Source: an uncultured Bacilli bacterium
GTDB lineage: Bacteria; Bacillota_I; Bacilli_A; RF39; UBA660
DNA length: 64,000 nt
NCBI GenBank assembly: GCA_947589105.1
Contig: CANQBL010000004.1
Coordinates: 898-64,897 of the forward strand
Direction: 5' to 3'
Shown here: positions 5,212-59,377 of the stretch, piece after piece
Position numbering within the stretch: the stretch's first letter is position 1
Layout: every line of letters starts with the position of its first letter
Made by a program: the position numbers and the translations under genes
Notes under the pieces: generated by a model
The model's database searches: none
Told to the model about the DNA's origin: nothing
Seen by the model: the letters and a program-made list of their open reading frames with translations, nothing else

Positions 5212-7938
5212 TTGAAAGGAAAATTAAAATATTTATTACTTTTATTAGCTATGGTTGCAATTAGTCCTATTTCAAAAGTACAAGCTGCAACTTATCAAGA
5301 ACAATTTAACGATAAGTATATGTGGATACCTAACACTTATGTTAGTAAGAAAGAATCTAACGGTCGAGTTCATTATCAACAATTAACAATGATTACTAGA
5401 AAAAGTGATAATCAATTTGTTTATTGTATTGAGCCCGGTACACCATTAGATCCAAACGAAACTTATACAGGCCAAGACTACGATCAATCTTATGTCTCAA
5501 ACATGACACAAGCTCAATGGCGTAGAATTCAATTACTAGCTTACTATGGATATGGTTATAGTGATAGTTCAGTAGATCATTCAGACTTAAAATGGTATAG
5601 TGTTACCCAAGTAATGATTTGGCAAACAGTACCACATGGTATGGATATTTACTTTACTGACACATTAAATGGAAATAAAATTACTCGTTATACATCAGAA
5701 ATGCAAGAAATGGAAAATTTACTTTCTCAACACTATACTACACCAGATTTTGGATCAACTAACTTTGATATGGTTGTTGGAAATACATTAAAATTAACTG
5801 ATAGTAATAATGTATTGTCAAAATATGCTGTATCAAGTAATGATTATATTACTGCTTCAAAAAGTGGAAATGAATTACACTTAACTGCAAAAAATGTTGG
5901 AAATACATCTCTTTCATTAACTAAAAAAGATGTTAAATATTCACACCCAACTATTGTATATGTTAAGCCCGGAACACAAGATTTGGTACAAGTTGGTAGT
6001 TATGATCCAATCGACACAGTTATAAATATTAACATAGTTGGTGGAAAAATTGCTATCAATAAAGTAGATAATGATACTGGTCTTTCTACTCCACAAGGCG
6101 AGGCAACTTTAAAAGGTGCTGTTTATGGGGTATATCAAGAAGACGGTACTTATGTAACTCAAATTGTAACTGATGAAAACGGATATGCACAAAGTGGTTA
6201 TCTTCCAAGTTTAGGTAGATTCTATTTACAAGAAATCACACCAAGTAAGGGATATGAATTAGATCATCAAAAATATTATTTTGATTTAAAAACTGAAAAT
6301 TTATATCCAACAATTCAAGTACAAGAAAAAGTTATTGAAAGAGAATATCGTATTACAAAAGTAGTAGCTTCTGATAAGACACAAATAATGACACCAGAGC
6401 CAAATGTTCAATTTGGTATTTATGATAGAAACAATCATCTTATTAAAACACTTACTACTGATGATGAGGGTAAAATTACTTTCACACTTCCTTATGGTAA
6501 ATATATTTTAAGACAACTTACTACAACTAGCGGTTTTGAAAAGATAAAAGACTATGAATTTGAAATAAAAGAATCTGGTCCAACTATCAATAAAGTATTT
6601 TCAAATGCTGAAATAACTGCAAGAATTAAAGTAGTAAAAGTAGATCAAGACGGTAATATCATCACAAGAGCTGGTATTAGATTTAAAATTAAAGATCTTT
6701 CTACTGGTAAATATGTTTGCCAAACAGTAGCTTATCCTAATCATACGACTTATTGTGAATTTGAAACAGATGAGAACGGTGTTTTAATTACACCATATCC
6801 TTTAAACTCTGGTAATTATCAACTTGAAGAAGTAGATCAAGTTATCGACGGTTATGTTTGGAATTCTACACCTTTAAAATTCTCTATCAATGAAAATTCT
6901 GATATTAAAAGTACAGAAGACTTTGACGCCATTCTTGAATTAAGATTTGCTAATCAAGAAGTTAAAGGTAGTATTGAAATTCAAAAGACTGGCGAAAAAG
7001 TTGTTATTGAAGACGGTAAGTTTACTTATGTTGAAGTACCACTTCCAAATGTTGTCTTTGGTTTATACGATGAATCTGGTAATTTAGTAGGAAAATATAC
7101 TACTGATGAAAACGGATATATCAAAATTGAAAATTTAAAACTTGGTAAATACGTTTTAAAAGAATTAGAAACTGTTGACGGTTTCGTACTTGATGAAAAG
7201 TCTTATGATATTGAATTAAAATATAAAGATCAATATACACCTATTGTTACAGAAACATTTACTTTAAAAAATTATCTTGAAAAAGGTAATTTAGAATTTT
7301 CTAAAAAAGATTTAACATCTGGAAAAGAAATACCAAATGTTAAGGTTGAAGTATATACTGAAAATGATGAGCTTATTTTTACTGGTGTAACTGATGAGAA
7401 CGGTAAAATTGTTATCGAAGATTTATTCGTTGGTAAATTTTATATTGTAGAAACGGAAGCTGCAACAGGTTATCGTTTAAGTGATGAAAAGGTATATTTT
7501 GAAATTTTAGAAAATGGCGAAATAGTAAAAGCCGAAATGACTAACGAAAAATTTAAAGGATCATTAGACTTCACAAAAGAAAGTTTTGCTGGCGACGCTC
7601 TACCAAATACTCTAATTGAAATTTATAATGCTGAAACTGACGAGTTAGTTTTCTCTGGAAGAACTGATGAGAACGGTAAAATTGTTATTGAAGAATTAGA
7701 ATATGGTAAGTATTACATCTTGGAAAAAGAGGCACCAGAGGGTTATCTATTAAACGAAGAAAAAATGTTCTTTGAAATTTTAGAAGACGGTCAAATCGTT
7801 AAAGCTGTGATGAAAGATGAAAAAATAGAAATGCCTAAAACATTCAATACTGATTTAATTAGTATGTTTGTTATTGGTGGTACTGCACTAGCTGGGGTTG
7901 GTTTATTACTATATGCTAAAAAAAGAAAAGAAAAATAA
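5212..7938 (+). CDS. Cell-wall-anchored adhesin: N-terminal thioester (TED/TQXA) domain plus ~8 Cna-B/SpaA-type repeats
   Basis: Signal peptide; VYCIE (Cys at 5425-5427) and VTQVMIW (Gln at 5608-5610) motifs. Repeated TDENG...L..GKY.L.E...GY modules. C-terminal MPKTF + TM + KKRKEK sorting signal. The likely start is TTG 5212, 7 nt after AAAGGGGG (the track starts at 5185). Confidence 0.85.
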   Translation: MKGKLKYLLLLLAMVAISPISKVQAATYQEQFNDKYMWIPNTYVSKKESNGRVHYQQLTMITRKSDNQFVYCIEPGTPLDPNETYTGQDYDQSYVSNMTQAQWRRIQLLAYYGYGYSDSSVDHSDLKWYSVTQVMIWQTVPHGMDIYFTDTLNGNKITRYTSEMQEMENLLSQHYTTPDFGSTNFDMVVGNTLKLTDSNNVLSKYAVSSNDYITASKSGNELHLTAKNVGNTSLSLTKKDVKYSHPTIVYVKPGTQDLVQVGSYDPIDTVININIVGGKIAINKVDNDTGLSTPQGEATLKGAVYGVYQEDGTYVTQIVTDENGYAQSGYLPSLGRFYLQEITPSKGYELDHQKYYFDLKTENLYPTIQVQEKVIEREYRITKVVASDKTQIMTPEPNVQFGIYDRNNHLIKTLTTDDEGKITFTLPYGKYILRQLTTTSGFEKIKDYEFEIKESGPTINKVFSNAEITARIKVVKVDQDGNIITRAGIRFKIKDLSTGKYVCQTVAYPNHTTYCEFETDENGVLITPYPLNSGNYQLEEVDQVIDGYVWNSTPLKFSINENSDIKSTEDFDAILELRFANQEVKGSIEIQKTGEKVVIEDGKFTYVEVPLPNVVFGLYDESGNLVGKYTTDENGYIKIENLKLGKYVLKELETVDGFVLDEKSYDIELKYKDQYTPIVTETFTLKNYLEKGNLEFSKKDLTSGKEIPNVKVEVYTENDELIFTGVTDENGKIVIEDLFVGKFYIVETEAATGYRLSDEKVYFEILENGEIVKAEMTNEKFKGSLDFTKESFAGDALPNTLIEIYNAETDELVFSGRTDENGKIVIEELEYGKYYILEKEAPEGYLLNEEKMFFEILEDGQIVKAVMKDEKIEMPKTFNTDLISMFVIGGTALAGVGLLLYAKKRKEK

Positions 7939-8536
7939 TTTTATAAAGATTATAGGGTTGATTTTGATATTGGGATCAGCCCTTTATTCTTTTTATTTTG
8001 TCTATGAAAAATATAAAGATAAACAAGTTACTGAACAAATAATTGATGAAATATTTAACAACGAAATTGATTCTAATAATGAAGAACAACAAGTCGAAGA
8101 AACACCTATTGAGGAAACACCCAAAAAACAAGCTGACATTGTTTTAACTAACAATTATCTTGGATATATTGAATTATCAAATTATGGAATAAAAAGACTA
8201 ATTACTACTGGAACGGATAAAGCTACTCTTGATAAAGGGTTAGTTGGTACATTAAAGACTTCTGCTAATCTTGATGATGAAGTTGGAAATGTTATTTTAG
8301 CCGGTCATAGTACAAGTAATGTATTTCAAAACTTACATTATACAAAGATTGGGGATCAAATTAAAATTGTTACACATCAAAAAACATATTTATATGTAAT
8401 TACTGAAAGGCATACTATTTCTGATAATGATATGTCATATTTTAAAAAAGTTACTAATAAAAAAATTTTAACTCTTGTTACTTGTAAAAGTAATAATAAA
8501 CAACGTCTTATTGTTGTTGCTGAATTAAGGGGGTAA
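7913..8536 (+). CDS. Sortase (transpeptidase) dedicated to the adjacent adhesin
   Basis: N-terminal TM, LAGHS catalytic His, TLVTC catalytic Cys, RLIVVAELR Arg. Confidence 0.85.
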   Translation: MLKKEKKNNFIKIIGLILILGSALYSFYFVYEKYKDKQVTEQIIDEIFNNEIDSNNEEQQVEETPIEETPKKQADIVLTNNYLGYIELSNYGIKRLITTGTDKATLDKGLVGTLKTSANLDDEVGNVILAGHSTSNVFQNLHYTKIGDQIKIVTHQKTYLYVITERHTISDNDMSYFKKVTNKKILTLVTCKSNNKQRLIVVAELRG

Positions 8537-8559
8537 TAAAAATAAAAAGGTATAATACA

Positions 8560-8772
8560 ATGTTTAAATTTTGCATTACAAAAAAATTAAAAAATGATAT
8601 AAAAAGAAGATCCAGAGAATTAGATATTTCTATGTCTGATTATGTTAGAACACTTATTAAAAAAGATCTTACAGAAAATAAGATCGTAAATAATACAATG
8701 GATCATGATAAAAACTTATATGATGTTAATAATTTTAATAAAAAACTATCTGGATATTATACGAGGTTATAA
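8560..8772 (+). CDS. Small ribbon-helix-helix-like protein
   Basis: KRRSRELDISMSDYVRTLIKKDL resembles a CopG/RHH DNA-binding motif. Confidence 0.45.
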   Translation: MFKFCITKKLKNDIKRRSRELDISMSDYVRTLIKKDLTENKIVNNTMDHDKNLYDVNNFNKKLSGYYTRL

Positions 8773-9380
8773 TGAGTAAAATTTATGAAATTGATAGGTC
8801 TTTATATAAAAAAATAGAAATGTATCCTACTAATGATAAATTTATTTTCACTACAAAAGGTAAACAATCTGTTATAGCTGTTGATAATTCAAACGGTCAA
8901 TTTTTTGTTGAAGACTTTTCTAATAAAACAAAAGCACTTATTTATCTTGTAAATGATAGTTTTTTACCTAACGATGTTGAAAAGGAATATAAAGAAAATA
9001 AAACAAAGTATAAAAATTATAAAAAAATTGTCTCCTCTCAAAATGATTATTTTATAGATCGTGATTTGTACGATCGAGATTTTTTAGACTTTGACAATAA
9101 TAAAAAATATAGGTTTGATATTGACATCGGATATGGTAGAAAAAGTTTTAAATCTACAATTAAAGACGCTTTATCTTTGGCAAGCAATTATGAAAGTGAT
9201 CTTGTTTTTAATGATAGGTTAATCTATTCCCCTCTTGGTTTTGAGTGGGAATATAATAAAAATTTAGTTAAAAGATATTTAGGAAAAAACTTTTTTGATA
9301 ATAATAAACATCTTCCTTATGTATTTAAAGATGATGATTGTATTGAGTGGTTGAATAAAAATAAAGAAATAAAAATTTAA
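8772..9380 (+). CDS. Hypothetical protein
   Basis: 202-aa ORF, start-stop coupled to the previous gene. Confidence 0.6.
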   Translation: MSKIYEIDRSLYKKIEMYPTNDKFIFTTKGKQSVIAVDNSNGQFFVEDFSNKTKALIYLVNDSFLPNDVEKEYKENKTKYKNYKKIVSSQNDYFIDRDLYDRDFLDFDNNKKYRFDIDIGYGRKSFKSTIKDALSLASNYESDLVFNDRLIYSPLGFEWEYNKNLVKRYLGKNFFDNNKHLPYVFKDDDCIEWLNKNKEIKI

Positions 9381-27050: not shown

Positions 27051-28243
27051 AAATATATTGTGTGGATAAGGTAATCGGAGCAACTGGGCCTACGGGACCT
27101 ACTGGTCCACAAGGTGTTCCTGGTATAGGAGTTACGATAAAAGGTGCATATGATTCTTTAGATGATTTAGAAAATGTTTATCCAGTTGGAAATCCTGATG
27201 ATGCTTATGTTATAGGTGACGATTTATATATATGGTCTGATAATGAAGATTCTTGGATAGATATTGGAACAATAAGAGGTCCAAAAGGAGAAACTGGATT
27301 ACAAGGCATTCAAGGGCCTCAAGGCCCTCAAGGAGTTCCCGGACCACAAGGGCCTCAAGGAGTACCTGGTGATCAAGGTATTCAAGGACCTGTTGGACCT
27401 CAAGGTCCAAAAGGGGAAACTGGTTCAATTGGCGCAACAGGTCCAGCTGGAACTAGTGTTACTATATTGGGTTCTTACGATGATATTGGAGAATTGGAAA
27501 AAGACCATCAAAAAGGCAACCCAGGAGATTCTTATTTAGTTGGTAATGATTTATATGTTTGGTCTAATGAAGATAGCACGTGGAAAAATGTTGGAACAAT
27601 AAGGGGACCTCAAGGTGTTGCTGGGCCTCAGGGACCAGAAGGACCTCAAGGAGTTCCTGGACCTGTTGGGCCTCAAGGAGAGCGAGGCATTCAAGGACCA
27701 GTTGGACCTCAAGGAGTACCAGGTCCACAAGGACCTCAAGGAATTCCTGGTCCACAAGGGGAATATGATCTTAAAGCAGTTTATATAACAACCTATAATA
27801 ACAACATTCCAACAGGTTATACAATAGCATCAAACAACAGATTACCACTTTCAGCAAAAACATATGATAATGGTAATTTATGCTCTTTAGATTCTACAGA
27901 AAATACCATAACCTTTAACCAAGAAGGTGTATATAAAATAGATTTTGTAGTAAATACGTACCACTCAAATACAAATAGTTTAGCAACTATGGCAGCTGTT
28001 GGGTTTAAAAAAATAAATGAGCCAATAGTGTATGCTGGAGGAAGTTTATGGTATGGACAAAGTGTTTCTTCTCCTATTGTTGGTCAAGGTTTATTTGTAA
28101 TAGGAAAAGCTGGAGAAAAAATGGAATTTGTGAATTTGTCAAAAACTAATTTAACACTAAATACCCCTTTGATAGATGATATATTATCAGATTCATATTT
28201 AGTTAATCCTTTAATAACAATTACTATTTTATATTTAGGTTAA
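27032..28243 (+). CDS. Collagen-like (GXY repeat) BclA-type surface/exosporium protein; 5' end uncertain
   Basis: Three GXY tracts ([10 protein letters not shown]... and similar) are separated by two homologous ~49-aa modules, followed by a ~160-aa C-terminal globular domain. The gene is locally GC-rich. No RBS precedes the possible starts (TTG 27032, GTG 27062). Confidence 0.85.
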
Positions 28244-28293
28244 TAAATTAATTAAGAATATGTTTCATATAAATTATTGAAAGGAATTAAAAT

Positions 28294-29388
28294 ATGAAAA
28301 AAAATAAAGTATGTGTTTATGCAATAAGTAAAAATGAGGAAAAATTTGCTAAACGTTGGTATGAATCAATGAAAGAAGCAGATGAAGTATACGTTTTAGA
28401 TACAGGCTCTACTGATAATACCGTTAATATTTTAAAAAATCTTGGAGCTAAAGTAACCATAAAAGAAATCAATCCCTGGCGTTTTGATGTTGCTAGAAAT
28501 GAGTCTTTATCTTTAGTACCAAAAGATTGTGACATTTGTGTATGTACGGATTTAGATGAAATATTTAATAAAGGGTGGCGAAAAAAATTAGAATCGTTAT
28601 GGAAAAATGGAGTTAATCATATAAGATACAATTATAATTGGAGTCACGATGAAAACGGAAAACCACTAATTAATTTTTATATAGAAAAAATACATTCTAG
28701 AAACGATTTCAAATGGATTCATCCGGTTCATGAAGTTCTAGAATTTAGTGGAGAAAAGCAAATATGGGAAACTACAAATGAAATAACATTAGATCATTTT
28801 CCTGATGATACTAAATCAAGAAGTAGTTACTTACCTCTTTTAGAATTATCTGTAAAAGAAAAACCAAATAACGATAGAAACATGCATTACTTAGGAAGAG
28901 AATACATGTTTTATGGCAGGTGGAATGAAGCTATTGATACATTAATAAAACATCTTTCTTTAAAAAGTGCTACTTGGAAAGATGAAAGATGTGCCTCTAT
29001 GAGGTTCATATCAAGATGTTATAAAAATCTTAAAAGATATGATGAGGCAAAAATGTGGCTTGATAAAGCTATAAACGAAGCTCCTTATTTAAGAGATCCA
29101 TATATGGAAAGAGCGATTCTTGAATATGAATTAAATAATTATAAGGAAGTTAAAAAATACTGTCTTAAAGCTTTAGAAATTAAAAGCCACGCAAAAACCT
29201 ATATAAATGAACCTTTTAGTTGGAATTACACAGTATACGACCTTCTATCAATAAGTTGCTTTTATTTAGATGAACTTAATGAAGCTATTACGTGGTGTAA
29301 TAAAGCCATAGAAATGGAACCTAATAACGAAAGATTATTAAACAATAAGAAAATAATTGAGCAAAAAAGAAAATCTGTTAATAAATAG
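28294..29388 (+). CDS. Family-2 glycosyltransferase fused to TPR repeats
   Basis: VCVYAISKNEEKF...VLDTGSTDNT...CTDLDE (GT-A/DxD), with C-terminal TPR-like HYLGREYMFYGRWNEAI repeats. Confidence 0.75.
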   Translation: MKKNKVCVYAISKNEEKFAKRWYESMKEADEVYVLDTGSTDNTVNILKNLGAKVTIKEINPWRFDVARNESLSLVPKDCDICVCTDLDEIFNKGWRKKLESLWKNGVNHIRYNYNWSHDENGKPLINFYIEKIHSRNDFKWIHPVHEVLEFSGEKQIWETTNEITLDHFPDDTKSRSSYLPLLELSVKEKPNNDRNMHYLGREYMFYGRWNEAIDTLIKHLSLKSATWKDERCASMRFISRCYKNLKRYDEAKMWLDKAINEAPYLRDPYMERAILEYELNNYKEVKKYCLKALEIKSHAKTYINEPFSWNYTVYDLLSISCFYLDELNEAITWCNKAIEMEPNNERLLNNKKIIEQKRKSVNK

Positions 29389-29402
29389 ATTTTCTTTTTT
29401 TA

Positions 29403-30449
29403 TTATAAATACCATAACTTTTTATCATTTTTTCTTACTTCTTTAATTATTCCTCCGCCTAAACACAAATCATCTTTATAAAAAGCACAAACTTGTCCAG
29501 GAGTTACCGATTTTATCCCCTGGGGATAACTAACCAATAAATCTCCATTTTCTAAGTACTTTAAACTTACCATTTCTTCCTTTTGTCTATACCTAAATTT
29601 AGCTGTACAACTAGTAATTTTATTTTCATATAACCAATTAACTTCTTTTAATATACACGAATCTGATATTAAATACTCATTACTATCACCCGTTGCAATA
29701 TATAAAATATTCTTAAATAAATCCTTTCCAACAACAAACATTCTATCAGTTGTTCCACCAATATTTAATCCTCTTCTTTGTCCTATAGTATAATTAAATA
29801 AACCATTATGTTCCCCTATTTTTTTATTATTAGAAATATCAATAATATCTCCTTTTATACCTTTAATATTATTTATAATGAAATTTTTAAAAGCATTATT
29901 TATAAAACAAACATCTGTAGAATCCTTTAAAGAAGCATTATCCATATTATTTTCTAAAGCTATTTTTCTTACTTCACTTTTATCTATACCATCTAATGGA
30001 AACAAAATATTATTAAGTTCTTCCTTTGTAATTTCACACAAAAAATAAGTTTGATCTTTATTTACATCCGCACTTTTATATAAATTACCATTTTCTTTTT
30101 TAGCATAATGTCCCGTAGCCATAAAATCACAATTAAATTTAATCATTTGATCATAAAGAAATTTTAACTTAACGAGTTTATTACATGTCACACAAGGATT
30201 AGGCGTTATACCTTTTTTATAATCATTAATAAATTTATCAATTATCTTTTCTTTAAATTCTTTTCTATAATCTATAATATGATGTTCTATTTCTAACTTC
30301 TTACAAGCTTTAATAGCATTACTACAATCAAAATCATTAGTAAATTTAAAAGTTATACCAATTACTTCATATCCTTGATTTTTAAGTATTATAGCTGCTA
30401 CTGAAGAGTCTACCCCACCAGATATACCAACTACTACTTTTTTGCTCAT
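29403..30449 (-). CDS. mnmA: tRNA-specific 2-thiouridylase MnmA
   Basis: VVVGISGGVDSSVAA PP-loop, catalytic Cys motifs, full-length 348 aa. Confidence 0.9.
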   Translation of the reverse strand: MSKKVVVGISGGVDSSVAAIILKNQGYEVIGITFKFTNDFDCSNAIKACKKLEIEHHIIDYRKEFKEKIIDKFINDYKKGITPNPCVTCNKLVKLKFLYDQMIKFNCDFMATGHYAKKENGNLYKSADVNKDQTYFLCEITKEELNNILFPLDGIDKSEVRKIALENNMDNASLKDSTDVCFINNAFKNFIINNIKGIKGDIIDISNNKKIGEHNGLFNYTIGQRRGLNIGGTTDRMFVVGKDLFKNILYIATGDSNEYLISDSCILKEVNWLYENKITSCTAKFRYRQKEEMVSLKYLENGDLLVSYPQGIKSVTPGQVCAFYKDDLCLGGGIIKEVRKNDKKLWYL

Positions 30450-30563
30450 TTTACCACCTACCTTATCTTTTATACAATTTTATTCATGTTTTTATACTTA
30501 AAATTAACTTCAATTTATATATAAATTATACTATCTTTTTATAAAAAAAGATATATCATCAAA

Positions 30564-45146: not shown

Positions 45147-45220
45147 AGGGGATTAGTTAAATGGTATAATAATGGTCTCCAAAACCACTGTTGGGAGTTC
45201 GATTCTCTCATCCCCTGCCA
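45147..45220 (+). tRNA. tRNA-Trp (anticodon CCA) with encoded CCA
   Basis: Manual cloverleaf: acceptor AGGGGAT/ATCCCCT, anticodon loop CTCCAAA, T-arm GGGAG-TTCGATT-CTCTC. Confidence 0.9.
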
Positions 45221-45257
45221 TAACAACTGTTCGCTTTATAGCGATTTATAATATATT

Positions 45258-45491: not shown

Positions 45492-45515
45492 AAAAAAACG
45501 AACCTAAAAGGTTCG
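45492..45515 (-). terminator. Intrinsic terminator (minus strand) after the glmS stub
   Basis: The minus strand reads CGAACC-TTTTA-GGTTCG followed by T7. Confidence 0.6.
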
Positions 45516-45615
45516 AATCAATTCAACTCCTAGAGAGTTTAAAAAACTTTGTGTAAAATTACCAATCCATGGTAATAAAGATATTTGAGAGTGATTATAT
45601 TAAGTTCATTATAAA

Positions 45616-45678
45616 TCATATCCCAATTAGGATATCTAGTAGTCCATTTTTCTCTACATAACCTATTATTGCACACAT
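45616..45678 (-). pseudogene. glmS: glmS 5' remnant (20 codons)
   Basis: MCAIIGYVEKNGLLDILIGI* behind a GGGGG RBS. Compare the GlmS N-terminus MCGIVGYIG...ILL.GL. No GlmS body follows in any frame. Confidence 0.6.
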
Positions 45679-45689
45679 AAACCCCCATT

Positions 45690-45826
45690 ACTGTGTAATT
45701 TTTGGATTTAATATATACCTTTATTTTGCATTTTAAATATATATCTAACGATTATCCCCTCCGCAGTGGCACCCGCCGAATTTTCGATAACTACTAACCT
45801 CTTCAACTATAAAAGTTCTGGCGCTC
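45690..45826 (-). ncRNA. glmS ribozyme/riboswitch
   Basis: The minus strand reads AGCGCCAGAACU...GAAGAGGUUAGUAGUUAUCGAAAAUUCGGCGGGUGCCACUGCGGAGGGG. This matches, from memory, the hallmark cleavage-site segment and core of Rfam RF00234. It sits immediately 5' of the glmS-like start. Confidence 0.7.
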
Positions 45827-46137
45827 GTCATATAAACTTTAATCTAACCTTCCAAAAGTTAAATATAACTATATTTAGTATATAGAAAAATATAGAAAAA
45901 ATAAAAAATTGTCATTATCTATTTCAAATTTATTATCATTTTATTAAAAAAATTGACAATTTATATTGTGTTAATTTAATAATATCTAAAAATAATAGTA
46001 AACTACCAAATCCAAATAAGATTTATCTTATATGAAATACGACGTAAGTTAAAATTTATTTATTGCAATAAAATTTAAGGATGATTGCAAATAAGAAAGA
46101 CTATTGATATAATATGATTAGAGAGGAGAAATAAAAA

Positions 46138-46512
46138 ATGTATGAAGTAGGAATGTTATGTAAACACTTTAAAGGAAAAGATTTATATGAAAAAAATATA
46201 TATAGAATTATAAAGTTGGGATTGTCAGGTAATGAAATAGATGAAGAGAAAATAACTTATTCAGGTGACAATGAACTTAAGAGTGCTTCTAATTTAGTTA
46301 TTTATGCTAATATATTTCAAGATAATAAATTATTTGCAAGAGAATACGAAGATATATCTAGTGAATTATCGGATGAAAAAAAACAAATTTATAATCAAAC
46401 ATACAAAGTTCAACCATTAACTCCAAATGAAATAGAATTAATTAATAATGAAGATTTTATTTTAAAAAAGAAAAAAATAGTAAAAGAAAAAATCTTAAAA
46501 AAAACATTATAG
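46138..46512 (+). CDS. DUF1653-like protein
   Basis: CKHFKGKDLYEKNIYRII...LVIYANIFQDNKLFAREYEDI resembles the Y(R/K)H(Y/F)KG...VVY...LWVRP pattern. Confidence 0.5.
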   Translation: MYEVGMLCKHFKGKDLYEKNIYRIIKLGLSGNEIDEEKITYSGDNELKSASNLVIYANIFQDNKLFAREYEDISSELSDEKKQIYNQTYKVQPLTPNEIELINNEDFILKKKKIVKEKILKKTL

Positions 46513-46708
46513 AGTATGAAAATAATTTTGTGTAAAGATAAATTCTTTCTATGGTAATATAGAAATATATAACTAAGAAAGGATTTTTTGTATGAAAGAA
46601 AATAAAAATAATGAAATTGTTAAATATTTACAATTTCATTATATCATACACAATATTTATCAGAGATTATTACATCATTTTATATCACAAATTACATAAA
46701 AATATGAA

Positions 46709-47919: not shown

Positions 47920-48747
47920 TTAATTAAATATTACTTTCCCATCCAAGTTACAAATATAGCAATTAGGAAATAATGTTTTTATTTTTCTTAAAATTTTATT
48001 ATCCTTTTCATATTTTCTTCCAACTAATATACCTTCAATAAAGCAAGCTGGTAACAAAAAAACAATTGCACTTTCCCTATCAGTAAAAAAGGCATCTTTT
48101 TCTTTCCTGTCCTTTAAAAATCTTTCATAAAACCATTCATTAATAAAGGGTTTAACATCTTCATCACTTATAGTAGTATTTAAAATATCTCCTTTTAATA
48201 ATTCCTTAACATAATAATTATTTCCATTAAATATAATTCCTATTTGGACATTTTCCTGTTGATAACTAGGCATAAATCTAGCTTCTTTAGTTTGTTCCAT
48301 AGTCCAAATAAAATAATCATTTCTAGTTACAATACTCATAATATCAGACATTTTGCTATATGGAATCACAGAAGTGTCTTTCAAACCCTCACCTTTAAAC
48401 ATAATAGTTGCACCACTATAAAAGTCTATATAATCCTTTAACAAATAATCTTTCTGTAAATTCCAAACTCCTACCGTATAAGGATATTTAGAGTTTCTTC
48501 CATTAACAACTAAATCACACATTAGCCCTACTTTAGCTATTTTTTCTAATCCTTCGATATTCTTATAAGTTCCATGAAGTAACGTACCTTTTTTTAATCG
48601 TACTAAATCTCCCACTTTGTAATCATTACTTTCTATCTTATAATTATTTATAGAATTATAAAATCTATCTATTTGTTTTAATAATAATTTTCTTGCGTTA
48701 TTTTTTATATTTTTATTTACTAATTTAACGTATTGTTCTTTATCCAT
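47920..48747 (-). CDS. Hypothetical protein
   Basis: ATG 48747 lies 1 nt after the upstream stop, behind a GAGGAG RBS. No recognisable motif. Confidence 0.6.
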   Translation of the reverse strand: MDKEQYVKLVNKNIKNNARKLLLKQIDRFYNSINNYKIESNDYKVGDLVRLKKGTLLHGTYKNIEGLEKIAKVGLMCDLVVNGRNSKYPYTVGVWNLQKDYLLKDYIDFYSGATIMFKGEGLKDTSVIPYSKMSDIMSIVTRNDYFIWTMEQTKEARFMPSYQQENVQIGIIFNGNNYYVKELLKGDILNTTISDEDVKPFINEWFYERFLKDRKEKDAFFTDRESAIVFLLPACFIEGILVGRKYEKDNKILRKIKTLFPNCYICNLDGKVIFN

Positions 48748-48748
48748 A

Positions 48749-49378
48749 TTACTCCTCATAGTTAACCTTTATATTTTCTATATTGATTAATTCTTTATTT
48801 TCAAATTTAAATAATTCAGGTGCAAAAAACGCATCTTCAAAAATAATTTTATTATTAAAAGTTAATTTTAAAATAGATTTACTTAATTTTGTTTCACACC
48901 AAGTCATAAAAAGAAACAACATAGCTGTTCCATGAGATATTATAGCTATTTTTTTACCCTTATATTGATCTATAATACAACTTAAAGCATATAACATCCT
49001 TTTTGCTACTTCTTTTCTTGACTCCCCGTTTGGCAATTTATAATTTTCATCTTTAAACTGCTTATCTTCAAAGTTTAAAGGCAATTCATCCCATGAACGA
49101 ATTCCAGATTTTCTTTCTCCAAAATCATCCATAACAATTAACTTTTTATTATTTTTATCAGCTATATATTTTGCAGTTGCCATTGCCCTTACATAATTAC
49201 TTGATATTACTACATCTACATCTTCTAATTCTTTAATTTTGCTTAATATTCTAGCTCTTCTTTCCCCTTCTAAGGATAAAATTTGTTTTTCATTTTGTAT
49301 TTGTAAATTATCTTTACTATTACAAAAATTTAGTTTCATAGGTTCTGAGTGTCTTAACATATAAATCGTTGTCTTCAT
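48749..49378 (-). CDS. Histidine phosphatase (phosphoglycerate mutase) family protein
   Basis: IYMLRHSEP (RHG-type motif) and ISHGT near the C-terminus. Confidence 0.75.
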   Translation of the reverse strand: MKTTIYMLRHSEPMKLNFCNSKDNLQIQNEKQILSLEGERRARILSKIKELEDVDVVISSNYVRAMATAKYIADKNNKKLIVMDDFGERKSGIRSWDELPLNFEDKQFKDENYKLPNGESRKEVAKRMLYALSCIIDQYKGKKIAIISHGTAMLFLFMTWCETKLSKSILKLTFNNKIIFEDAFFAPELFKFENKELINIENIKVNYEE

Positions 49379-49411
49379 ACTTTTCTCCTTATTAACAAAA
49401 ATATAATAATG

Positions 49412-51286
49412 TTACTTTTTCAAATTATTAAACAAATTAACGCCTAATTCATTTTCTAATTGTTCAATTATTTCTGGTCTAGTATCAAGTCGCTTACCAA
49501 CAATATTTCCTAAAAATTTTAACATATTAGCTTTTTTGGTTTCTAAATCCTGTAAATCCACATTATTACCATATTTTCCTTGCTTACATAATTTATATAT
49601 ATTATTCATTTCAATTGCAAATTCAGTAAATTTACCAGACGATATATTATTAAATTTTTCTTCGAAACTTAAGTCATTATTTAAATATTGACTAGCTAAT
49701 TTATCTTCTCCCACCAAAATTTTACATATTCTCATAAAAGTTTTTATTGGAAACATATAGTCCTCTTCTTCGGATAATCTTATTTTAGTAATATCTTCGG
49801 CATACATTTGCGTAGTTGCTTCATCAATACCCTGGTACTCATTTGTTTCATGGCCAAAAAATAGTTGTTTTTTATTTTTAAACTGGCTCAATCCATGGGA
49901 AATTTCATGCATAATTTGACAAACAATTATATTAGCATTGTTAGGATCTTTAAGAAAGTTTTCATCAATATATATTTCGTTACCATTAGCAACTCGCCAA
50001 TTAACTAAGTTAGAACTATGTATCTCTAATAATGGTGCACTATAAACTTTTGTATCCTTTTGCATATTGCTTTCCAAATTTATAACATTAGTTACATTCC
50101 TAAAATATTCCCAAGCTTTTCTCTTTAAATTTTTAACAAGTTCATTATAATTCGGTAAAGAATTCCTACTATTTAATAATTGATTATATTCTGCTTTATA
50201 ATCACGCTCATTAACTTGTTGTAACTGTTTATTTTTATTAGCTTGAATATTAGAATTATATTCATTAATTTCCTTTAAAACATCAAAATTAAAACAAATA
50301 TTATTTGGATCAAAATTATTTTTAATAAGATTATTCTTTATTGTTTTATACACTTCTTGTTTGAAAGTTTTATCAACTTGTGGTATGGCCTTAACCAAAT
50401 GTCCTAATTTTCTTATGTATTCTTTTAAACCATTAATTAATTCGATTTCTGTTTCACCTGATTTAATTTGCGAATTAAAATATTCGCTTAAATAAATATT
50501 TTTACCATTTTCATTTATAGTAAATAAAGGATGTGTTCTTATCCAATTTAATACGCTAATTTCAATTGAATCATACATAATTTTCGACATTAAATTTGTA
50601 TAACTATTTTTTTCTTTTTTTATTTCGTTTGCATAACCTATCCATCCATTTATATTACCGCAAAAAAGATGCGGTTCATTACATTTTTTTATAAGCTCGG
50701 GATGTTCAGTTTCTATTTCTTTAAGTATTGATAGCACATTATCCATATCTTCTGTTGATGAATAAATAACTAAACCATCTTTTTGAGTATTTCCAATAAT
50801 TGTTCCATCACTTACTTTAAAATAGTATGTTATATTTAATTTTTCAAATTTTTCTTTTAACAATATTATAAAATTTGGTATTACAGATGGATCTACACTT
50901 ATATAGAATCTATGACTTATATCACCTTTCTCATACATTTTATTATTTGATAAGTGCCAAGACTGATAAGTTTGCCAACCTAATTGAGTTGAAAATATGG
51001 GGTTAGCCTGAAACCCATCTTCATTAATAAAAGGAGTGTATGTTCCTTTCTGAATGGATGATTTTACTATCTTTTCAGCTAAATCACTTACACTATCGTG
51101 TACACTATTTCCTTTATTTGGGTCATTTTTTAGAAAATTATAAAAAACTTTATATGGCTCTTTAAAAGCTGACCTAATATTATAGTTTTTAGACATATTA
51201 ATAAAATTATTTACAACTCTTGCTACATAATCTTCCGTTAAAGGAACACTGGCCTTTTCATATATGTTTCTACTGTTAACCACCAT
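49412..51286 (-). CDS. Large two-domain protein with a C-terminal HExxH metallopeptidase-like motif
   Basis: IVCQIMHEISHGL. The N-terminal half (HRFYISV...KDGLVIYS) loosely resembles HopA1/LanKC-lyase-type folds. Confidence 0.6.
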   Translation of the reverse strand: MVVNSRNIYEKASVPLTEDYVARVVNNFINMSKNYNIRSAFKEPYKVFYNFLKNDPNKGNSVHDSVSDLAEKIVKSSIQKGTYTPFINEDGFQANPIFSTQLGWQTYQSWHLSNNKMYEKGDISHRFYISVDPSVIPNFIILLKEKFEKLNITYYFKVSDGTIIGNTQKDGLVIYSSTEDMDNVLSILKEIETEHPELIKKCNEPHLFCGNINGWIGYANEIKKEKNSYTNLMSKIMYDSIEISVLNWIRTHPLFTINENGKNIYLSEYFNSQIKSGETEIELINGLKEYIRKLGHLVKAIPQVDKTFKQEVYKTIKNNLIKNNFDPNNICFNFDVLKEINEYNSNIQANKNKQLQQVNERDYKAEYNQLLNSRNSLPNYNELVKNLKRKAWEYFRNVTNVINLESNMQKDTKVYSAPLLEIHSSNLVNWRVANGNEIYIDENFLKDPNNANIIVCQIMHEISHGLSQFKNKKQLFFGHETNEYQGIDEATTQMYAEDITKIRLSEEEDYMFPIKTFMRICKILVGEDKLASQYLNNDLSFEEKFNNISSGKFTEFAIEMNNIYKLCKQGKYGNNVDLQDLETKKANMLKFLGNIVGKRLDTRPEIIEQLENELGVNLFNNLKK

Positions 51287-58675: not shown

Positions 58676-59377
58676 TTACCACTCTATTTCATCTATTGAT
58701 TTTGGATTTTTATTAATAATGATTTCTTCAGCTTTTCCATTTTTAAATTTTATAATTTTATCAGCCATTGGCGCTATTGCAGCGTTATGAGTTATTATTA
58801 TTACGGTCATTTTTTCTTTTCTTGCGGTTTGTTCAAGTAATTTTAAAATCTGCTTACCAGTTTTATAATCTAAAGCCCCCGTTGGTTCATCACATAAAAG
58901 TAACTTAGGGTTTTTAGCAAGTGCCCTTGCTATTGCAACACGTTGTTGTTCACCACCTGATAACTGGGATGGGAAATTATCCATCCTTTTTTGTAATCCT
59001 ACTTTACTTAAAATTGTTTTAGGGTCTAAATGGTCCTTACATAATTGAACTGCAAGTTCTACATTTTCTAATGCTGTTAAATTTTGCACTAAATTATAAA
59101 ATTGAAACACAAAGCCTATATCATTTCTTCGATACATTATAAGATTTTTATTTGTATAATTAGTTATTTCTTTTTTATCTACTATAACCTTACCACTGGT
59201 TAATGAATCCATACCACCTAATATGTTAAGGCAAGTTGTTTTTCCTGCACCTGATGGTCCTAAAATAACAACAAGCTCTCCTTTTTCTATTTCAAATGAA
59301 GCCTTGTTTAAAGCTTTTATTTCGACTTCACCCATTTTATATATTTTATCTACGTTTTTAAATTCAATATATGCCAT
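58676..59377 (-). CDS. ABC transporter ATP-binding protein (MacB/LolD-type)
   Basis: GPSGAGKTT Walker [16 protein letters not shown] signature, LLLCDEPT Walker B. Confidence 0.9.

Follow-up and report, generated by a model that had tools for sequence, protein, structure and literature searches.

The DNA analysed here, a 64,000-nucleotide stretch of an uncultured Bacilli bacterium with an overall GC content of ~25% (the window), carries on its minus strand a glmS ribozyme that is followed only by a 20-codon open reading frame (ORF) and an intrinsic terminator. The glmS RNA reportedly cleaves itself in a GlcN6P-dependent manner and is then degraded by RNase J1. A first-pass annotation, made from the sequence alone, had left two options: the displaced 5' end of glmS, left by a rearrangement or a mobile element, or a self-contained GlcN6P-responsive short transcript. 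The analyses described below indicate that the element is very probably an inactive, displaced 5' relic of glmS.

Organization of the locus

The features of the locus are collected in Table 1. The presence of a glmS ribozyme on the minus strand was borne out by a covariance model search, in which the match to RF00234 extended over the full model (1-167, E 2.6e-12) and scored above the gathering threshold, with the cleavage site between A 45825 and G+1 at 45824. A 7-bp terminator stem (45515-45499) followed by seven T residues and, beyond it, tRNA-Trp on the opposite strand were likewise found as described; the terminator scan gave two sites in the region, versus 0.1 expected from shuffled sequences.

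Table 1. Coordinates of the features discussed in the text, numbered from the first letter of the window.
Feature	Coordinates	Strand	Evidence
Promoter/leader remnant of glmS	45837..45898	-	nhmmer, alignment with the profile of 13 functional relatives starts at 45898
glmS ribozyme (RF00234), degenerate copy	45701..45836	-	Rfam, 63.6 bits versus gathering score 37
C28A in the active-site strand of P2.1 (GACGAGG to GAAGAGG)	45802..45802	-	
3' strand of P2, altered	45763..45770	-	Alignment, cmscan 'v' mark, private change list
P4/P4.1 region, damaged	45719..45735	-	Alignment, cmscan, private change list
GlmS N-terminal stub, 20 codons and TGA	45616..45678	-	Sequence, tblastn, clade HMM, nhmmer
Spacer between stub and terminator	45516..45615	-	No homology to GlmS body or C-terminus
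Intrinsic terminator, CGAACC-TTTT-AGGTTCG then T7	45492..45515	-	Terminator scan
tRNA-Trp(CCA), convergent with the relic	45147..45220	+	ARAGORN, Rfam
p124, weakly DUF1653-like gene, divergent from the relic	46138..46512	+	Pfam DUF1653 below cut-off

An nhmmer profile built from 13 functional relatives and covering the promoter to codon ~110 aligned with the window from about 45898 to 45624 (~275 nt, E 5.6e-38), where the similarity stopped. The homologous piece thus consists of a promoter remnant, a leader hairpin, the ribozyme, a Shine-Dalgarno sequence and ~18 codons. All the elements of the unit originally delimited at 45492-45826 are present, but its start has to be moved, as homology to glmS begins upstream of it, at about 45898. 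In the promoter remnant a -10-like TATACT is found at the position where the relatives carry TGTATAAT, and in the alignment the -10 of the window is the weaker one. The leader hairpin pairs ACTTT (45859-45855) with AAAGT (45840-45836) around a GGAAGG loop and was predicted by single-sequence folds in the window and in 13/13 relatives. The spacer matches none of the fetched loci except contigs of the same species.

Six contigs of this species were retrieved from ENA and Logan assemblies by means of the neighbouring 124-aa protein (p124). Two of them, L001 (ENA ERZ27249228) and L002 (Logan ERR10663683), span p124, the relic, the junction and the tRNA with 0-1 mismatch, and L003, L004 and L006 each contain parts of the relic, L006 coming from a separate study (SRR29273034). 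Because two independent contigs run across it, the junction is real sequence and not a misassembly, one of the possibilities that the annotation had named as fatal to its proposal. The strains are near-identical: over some 1-1.5 kb, flanks counted, they differ at 0-3 positions. This similarity reflects recent common ancestry and not constraint, and with a single carrier species and such similar strains the population data show neither selection nor its absence.

The sole polymorphism of the relic among the species contigs, T/C at 45851 (plus strand), turns the loop of the leader hairpin from GGAAGG into GGGAGG in L002 and L006. In a contig of a slightly diverged strain (L005, ERZ27249068, about 2x coverage) agreement with the window begins at 45939 and continues to the right, and the first 39 nt of this contig, which stand opposite 45900-45938, are unrelated to the window; these may come from a strain that does not carry the relic segment or may be a contig-end artefact.

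Functional relatives of the ribozyme

Public metagenome contigs were scanned with a short-P1 pattern, AGCGCCAGAACT-N3-8-AGTTGANGAGG-N5-9-TTATCGAA, in which the odd position of the window copy was left free. This search yielded 85 loci, none of them of the GAAGAGG type, and since the window's own GAAGAGG copy was missing from the matches, the window species must be absent from the collection scanned. The ribozyme pattern gave no match in viral contigs, and a viral origin was discarded on this ground.

The eleven closest loci (L090, L049, L107, L092, L094, L099, L081, L082, L040, L074 and L104) all have a short P1 and belong to organisms of 23-28% GC, and eight of them have the UAGUAG P2 (the exceptions are L081, L082 and L104). 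Ten of these eleven ribozymes precede GlmS ORFs of 580-604 aa, while in L099 the ORF reaches the contig end after 243 codons. When nine relatives were scanned with Rfam, their scores (67.8-83.6 bits) were all above that of the window copy.

The 50 nt upstream of the cleavage site were surveyed for hairpins in thirteen relatives, namely the eleven closest loci without L107 together with L046, L042 and L111. A leader hairpin of 7-10 bp ending 1-3 nt before the cleavage site is predicted in all thirteen, the window hairpin occupying 45859-45836. The stems differ in sequence, and most loops are Shine-Dalgarno-like, GAAAGG(A/T)G or a near variant. RNAalifold predicted no pairs in this hairpin, as MAFFT could not register the variable-length stems. 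The leader hairpin could be a 5' stabiliser that is removed by self-cleavage.

Decay of the ribozyme copy

Several hallmarks of the ribozyme are retained in the window. The AGCGCC sequence is kept at 45825-45820, as is its P2.2 partner GGCG, within UUCGGCGGGUG (the UCGGCGG segment). The copy nevertheless departs strongly from the functional ones, since it carries 12 private changes at the 75 ribozyme columns in which 13 functional relatives never vary, versus 0-2 in twelve of the relatives and 6 in the most distant one.

The P3-P4/P4.1 peripheral domain, which boosts the activity of the glmS ribozyme and is not strictly required for it, is not intact in the window copy. Relative to the 13 relatives, ~10 nt are deleted in P4/P4.1 (gap at ~45722), the inner P4 stem is absent according to cmscan, and in addition to the deletion the segment 45719..45735 carries four substitutions at invariant columns. 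Two P3 pairs are also non-canonical. In P2 the 5' strand UAGUAG is unchanged and the 3' strand reads CCACUG versus CUACUA in the relatives, which leaves an A.C mismatch, caused by T-to-C at 45768, and a single G.U wobble. Nor is the copy the leader of a complete glucosamine-6-phosphate synthase gene, the homologous sequence downstream of it amounting to about 18 codons and no more.

The window copy also shows an A-to-G change in the CGGAUG segment, which is a common natural variant (row A64G), with a natural frequency of 0.22 and a near-consensus kobs of 0.041 s-1 (PMC7125110 source data).

A substitution in the active-site strand of P2.1

A further change, in the core, concerns GACGAGG, a sequence found in 85/85 of the metagenomic ribozymes even though the search had left this base free, and which reads GAAGAGG in the window. 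The same base is present at 45802 in all five species contigs that cover this position. To place it within the ribozyme we used the numbering of Andreasson et al. 2020 (PMC7125110), who mapped every single and every double mutant of the core glmS ribozyme and in whose scheme P1 closes with the 8-25 pair and C28 forms P2.1 with G45. Given that closing pair, the C of GACGAGG is C28, so that of the invariant P2.1 nucleotides (C28-G29-A30 with U43-C44-G45) it is C28 that has become A in the window. The pairing partner UCG (of AUCGAA) is unchanged, which means that C28A is not compensated, and rescue was not seen within the 27.28-45 base triple (PMC7125110).

In the source data of that study the construct index equals the ribozyme numbering plus 6, so that C28A is the row C34A (...GTTGAAGAGG...). 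Its natural mutation frequency is 0, and its kobs is 3.7e-6 s-1 at 10 mM GlcN6P, close to the floor of 1e-6, whereas consensus-like variants cleave at 0.04-0.06 s-1 (PMC7125110). In a consensus-like construct C28A thus costs about four orders of magnitude in cleavage rate. GlcN6P-dependent self-cleavage of the window RNA should accordingly be abolished by this substitution, a prediction drawn from in vitro data on a 66-nt Thermoanaerobacter-type core construct (PMC7125110).

The GlmS stub and the missing gene body

The stub runs from ATG 45678-45676 to TGA 45618-45616 and encodes MCAIIGYVEKNGLLDILIGI followed by the stop. Its resemblance to the N-terminus of GlmS, as first noticed in the annotation, was upheld by a clade-specific GlmS HMM, which ranked it as the top match among 4315 six-frame peptides (E 0.15, HMM positions 1-18), and by tblastn, where it shared 61% identity over 18 residues with the GlmS proteins of L049 and L094. 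In the first 54 nt of the coding start 3/17 invariant columns are changed, versus 0-2 in the relatives. Two conserved GlmS glycines are gone from the stub, the one after the catalytic Cys being replaced by Ala (45671) and the one of GY.G by Glu (45653). Translation signals have also deteriorated: the run of G residues taken for a ribosome binding site does exist (GGGGG, 45686-45682), but it is a degraded version of the AGGAGG found in the relatives and lies only 3 nt from the ATG, versus 7-8 nt in the relatives. Because the stop codon falls two codons beyond the end of the glmS homology, what looked like a 20-codon ORF is a by-product of the junction.

The statement that no GlmS-like sequence follows the stub in any frame also held. 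Beyond the stub no GlmS body was detected in the 64 kb with ten clade GlmS proteins by tblastn or with the clade HMM in six frames, and with E. coli GlmS as the query the best tblastn E value against the window was 0.69. Two profiles of the terminal 183 nt of glmS, one built from 9 genes and the other from 50, found no match by nhmmer to a glmS 3' end in the spacer or terminator.

Two candidate remnants of the gene body were considered and rejected. A peptide in the spacer, YNELNIITLKYLYYHGLV (45613-45560), was taken for the start of a SIS domain on the basis of a tblastn E value of about 0.2 in a 1.2-kb database, but the HMM search was negative and the similarity is attributed to chance. The spacer and terminator were also read as a decayed glmS 3' end ('VE' before the hairpin), for which nhmmer was negative.

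Genomic context at the tRNA-Trp gene

In a scan of representative genomes the adjacent Mn-catalase-like protein was found in 19 related species with 65-86% identity; these are metagenome-assembled genomes that carry the labels uncultured Bacilli, Mollicutes or Clostridium sp., and a scaffold-level assembly, that of Clostridium sp. CAG:594. Where contigs are long enough, the order ClpB-polyprenyl synthase-VanY-(deaminase)-Mn-catalase-like-tRNA-Trp is kept. Within 10 kb of this neighbourhood none of the 19 species has a GlmS gene, nor a glmS ribozyme at the Rfam threshold or by nhmmer with the window sequence. In the stricter blastn searches DNA homology to the 19 relatives ends at 45221, the 3' end of tRNA-Trp, and restarts at 46708; very permissive blastn of the intergenic segment returned AT-rich noise only.

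The same tRNA is a site of insertion in the relatives. L007 has a tyrosine integrase (PF00589, E 2.4e-28) next to tRNA-Trp and, at a distance of 7.8 kb, 45 nt that repeat the 3' end of the tRNA perfectly; similar tRNA 3'-end repeats are present in L016, L010 and L018. In this clade the 3' end of tRNA-Trp is a hot spot at which mobile islands integrate. In the window itself we found no integrase, no att-like tRNA-Trp repeat and no other long repeats. For reference, the positions concerned are 45147-45221 in the window, 1157-1201, 7811-8845 and 9026-9100 in L007, and, for the other relatives, 2822-2866 (L016), 5408-5454 (L010) and 6023-6064 (L018).

On the other side of the relic, p124 reaches only 19.8 bits with Pfam DUF1653. 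Its homologs (60-70% identity; L031-L035) occupy a conserved ComEC...IstB-like...RNB neighbourhood with no glmS nearby, and no p124 homolog was found in the syntenic loci L007-L025, so that p124 and about 60 nt of sequence upstream of it seem to have been relocated or duplicated. Given the breakpoints at the tRNA and the different context of p124 elsewhere, the relic is one of several patches in a mosaic beside the integration hot spot. Synteny of p124 had also been tried and was given up, its homologs lying in an unrelated context that does not include glmS. p124 adjoins the relic only in the window species.

Origin of the element and alternative explanations

The best-supported account of these observations is that a ~275-nt piece from the 5' end of glmS was detached from the remainder of the gene and ended up in variable, island-prone DNA directly 3' of tRNA-Trp. 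Drift in the absence of selection then very probably brought C28A, the P4.1 deletion, the mismatches in P2 and P3, the weak Shine-Dalgarno sequence and the changes at conserved GlmS residues. The first of the two original options is favoured in this way: the piece is homologous to full-length glmS loci of low-GC relatives, and it stands in DNA that has no counterpart in the 19 syntenic relatives and that starts at the tRNA-Trp 3' end. Some features sit less easily with a dead relic, namely an Rfam score that is still well above threshold, the retention of AGCGCC and of its P2.2 partner GGCG, and a plausible -10 element which, together with the strong terminator, may still allow a short RNA to be transcribed. 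We infer displacement to this site rather than deletion of a resident glmS. The latter, in which the body of the gene would have been lost by an internal or 3' deletion that left the leader and the original terminator in place, would agree with the retained promoter region and with the terminator that follows. Contig L074, moreover, carries homologs of the window's ABC transporter genes, with an ATPase 82% identical to the product of window gene 58676-59377, and about 7 kb downstream of them, in the same orientation, comes an intact ribozyme-glmS, which is a weak hint of an ancestral glmS-transporter linkage; in the window the relic lies about 9.6 kb downstream of the transporter. In-place deletion is nevertheless less likely than displacement because none of the 19 species that share the tRNA-Trp/Mn-catalase neighbourhood has glmS within 10 kb; in the spacer, furthermore, neither the 3' end of glmS, although highly conserved, nor the SIS domains have left a trace, and the tRNA-Trp 3' end that delimits the segment is typical of island junctions. 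Taken together, we regard an in situ remnant as unlikely.

The second option, a functional GlcN6P-responsive transcript acting as a decoy, a regulatory small RNA or the carrier of a ribozyme-controlled 20-residue micropeptide, draws on the compact and complete-looking layout of the unit (promoter-like sequence, above-threshold ribozyme, ORF and strong terminator) and on its identity or near-identity across several samples. The latter is what recent common ancestry of the strains would give, and the former has to be set against a substitution whose natural frequency is 0 and which brings cleavage down to the detection floor (PMC7125110), the excess of private changes together with the P4.1 deletion, the poorly placed Shine-Dalgarno sequence, and the absence of any such stand-alone unit from the 19 syntenic relatives and the 85 metagenome loci; such a function is therefore highly improbable. 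The chance is slimmer still that the relic has been co-opted, its short terminated RNA (about 45860-45492) serving as a non-cleaving structured small RNA or encoding a 20-residue peptide, a case that would represent a ribozyme fossil recycled as a new regulator. Least credible, to the point of being negligible, is an assembly chimera in which ribozyme and stub of a normal glmS locus were fused by the assembler to unrelated sequence. Joins of that appearance do occur in low-coverage contigs (L062, L045, L061 and L053), where a ribozyme and partial glmS run abruptly into unrelated DNA, but L001 and L002 cross both sides of the relic, which three further contigs cover in part, and the many private changes are not what a chimera made from a real glmS would carry, since its leader would be clean.

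As for those four contigs, the break occurs after 11 codons in L062, which then runs on as a 208-aa ORF, at 342-343 nt from the ribozyme start in L045 and L061, where a hairpin and a T-run come next, and after 952 nt in L053; they may be chimeras or genuine truncations.

Relation to known systems

A displaced relic of this type is ordinary, and three sets of known elements can be compared with it. Like the RF00234 ribozymes in the 5' UTR of Firmicutes glmS genes, the window copy matches the full model, has AGCGCC, P1, P2, P2.2 and P2a, and lies directly upstream of a GlmS-type start (MC.I.GY); unlike them it has no glmS body, carries C28A, has lost the inner P4 and has mismatches in P2 and P3, and its Rfam score is below those of the nine close relatives scanned.

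Closer to it are the AT-rich glmS leaders with minimal P1 that occur in uncultured gut and rumen bacteria of low GC content (compared here through L090, L049, L094, L092, L099, L081, L082, L040, L074 and L104), with which it shares a -10 box, a hairpin with a GAAAGG-type loop, a P1 of 4-5 bp, an AT-rich P4 and, as in most of them, a UAGUAG/CUACUA-type P2, with a core identity of about 80-88%. In all of these leaders, in contrast to the window copy, the core reads GACGAGG, P4.1 is intact and the Shine-Dalgarno sequence is AGGAGG, and all except L099 precede a GlmS ORF of 580-604 aa. Finally, the relic resembles the pseudogene relics of tRNA-linked islands in lying in lineage-specific DNA that begins at a tRNA 3' end, and relatives have at the same site an integrase as well as directly repeated copies of the tRNA 3' end, whereas the window has neither integrase nor att-like repeat.

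The locus provides an example of a ribozyme or riboswitch match that exceeds the Rfam threshold and yet can be a dead fragment, and it suggests that 'orphan' cis-regulators should be compared with functional relatives and with mutational data before a new role is proposed for them. As by-products, the search delivered a group of AT-rich and very compact glmS ribozymes of uncultured gut and rumen bacteria with low GC content, which have in common a leader hairpin with a Shine-Dalgarno-like loop, ending at the cleavage site, as well as evidence for tRNA-Trp as an island integration hot spot in this clade.

Other features of the window

Between the repeat and the tRNA, L007 contains HopA1-like, histidine-phosphatase and p279 genes, and genes of these three types are also located near the tRNA in the window (47920-51286). 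The HopA1-like gene of the window (49412-51286) encodes a 624-aa protein with a HopA1 effector-family domain (Pfam 29.1 bits versus a cut-off of 22.7), which is unusual in a Firmicute-like organism of the gut; the protein is encoded in the variable zone and has homologs in the tRNA-Trp islands of the relatives. Further away, at ~28000-30500, genes change from plus to minus orientation where the cumulative GC skew reaches its maximum (about 29.4 kb), which fits a replication terminus in the window, about 16 kb from the relic.
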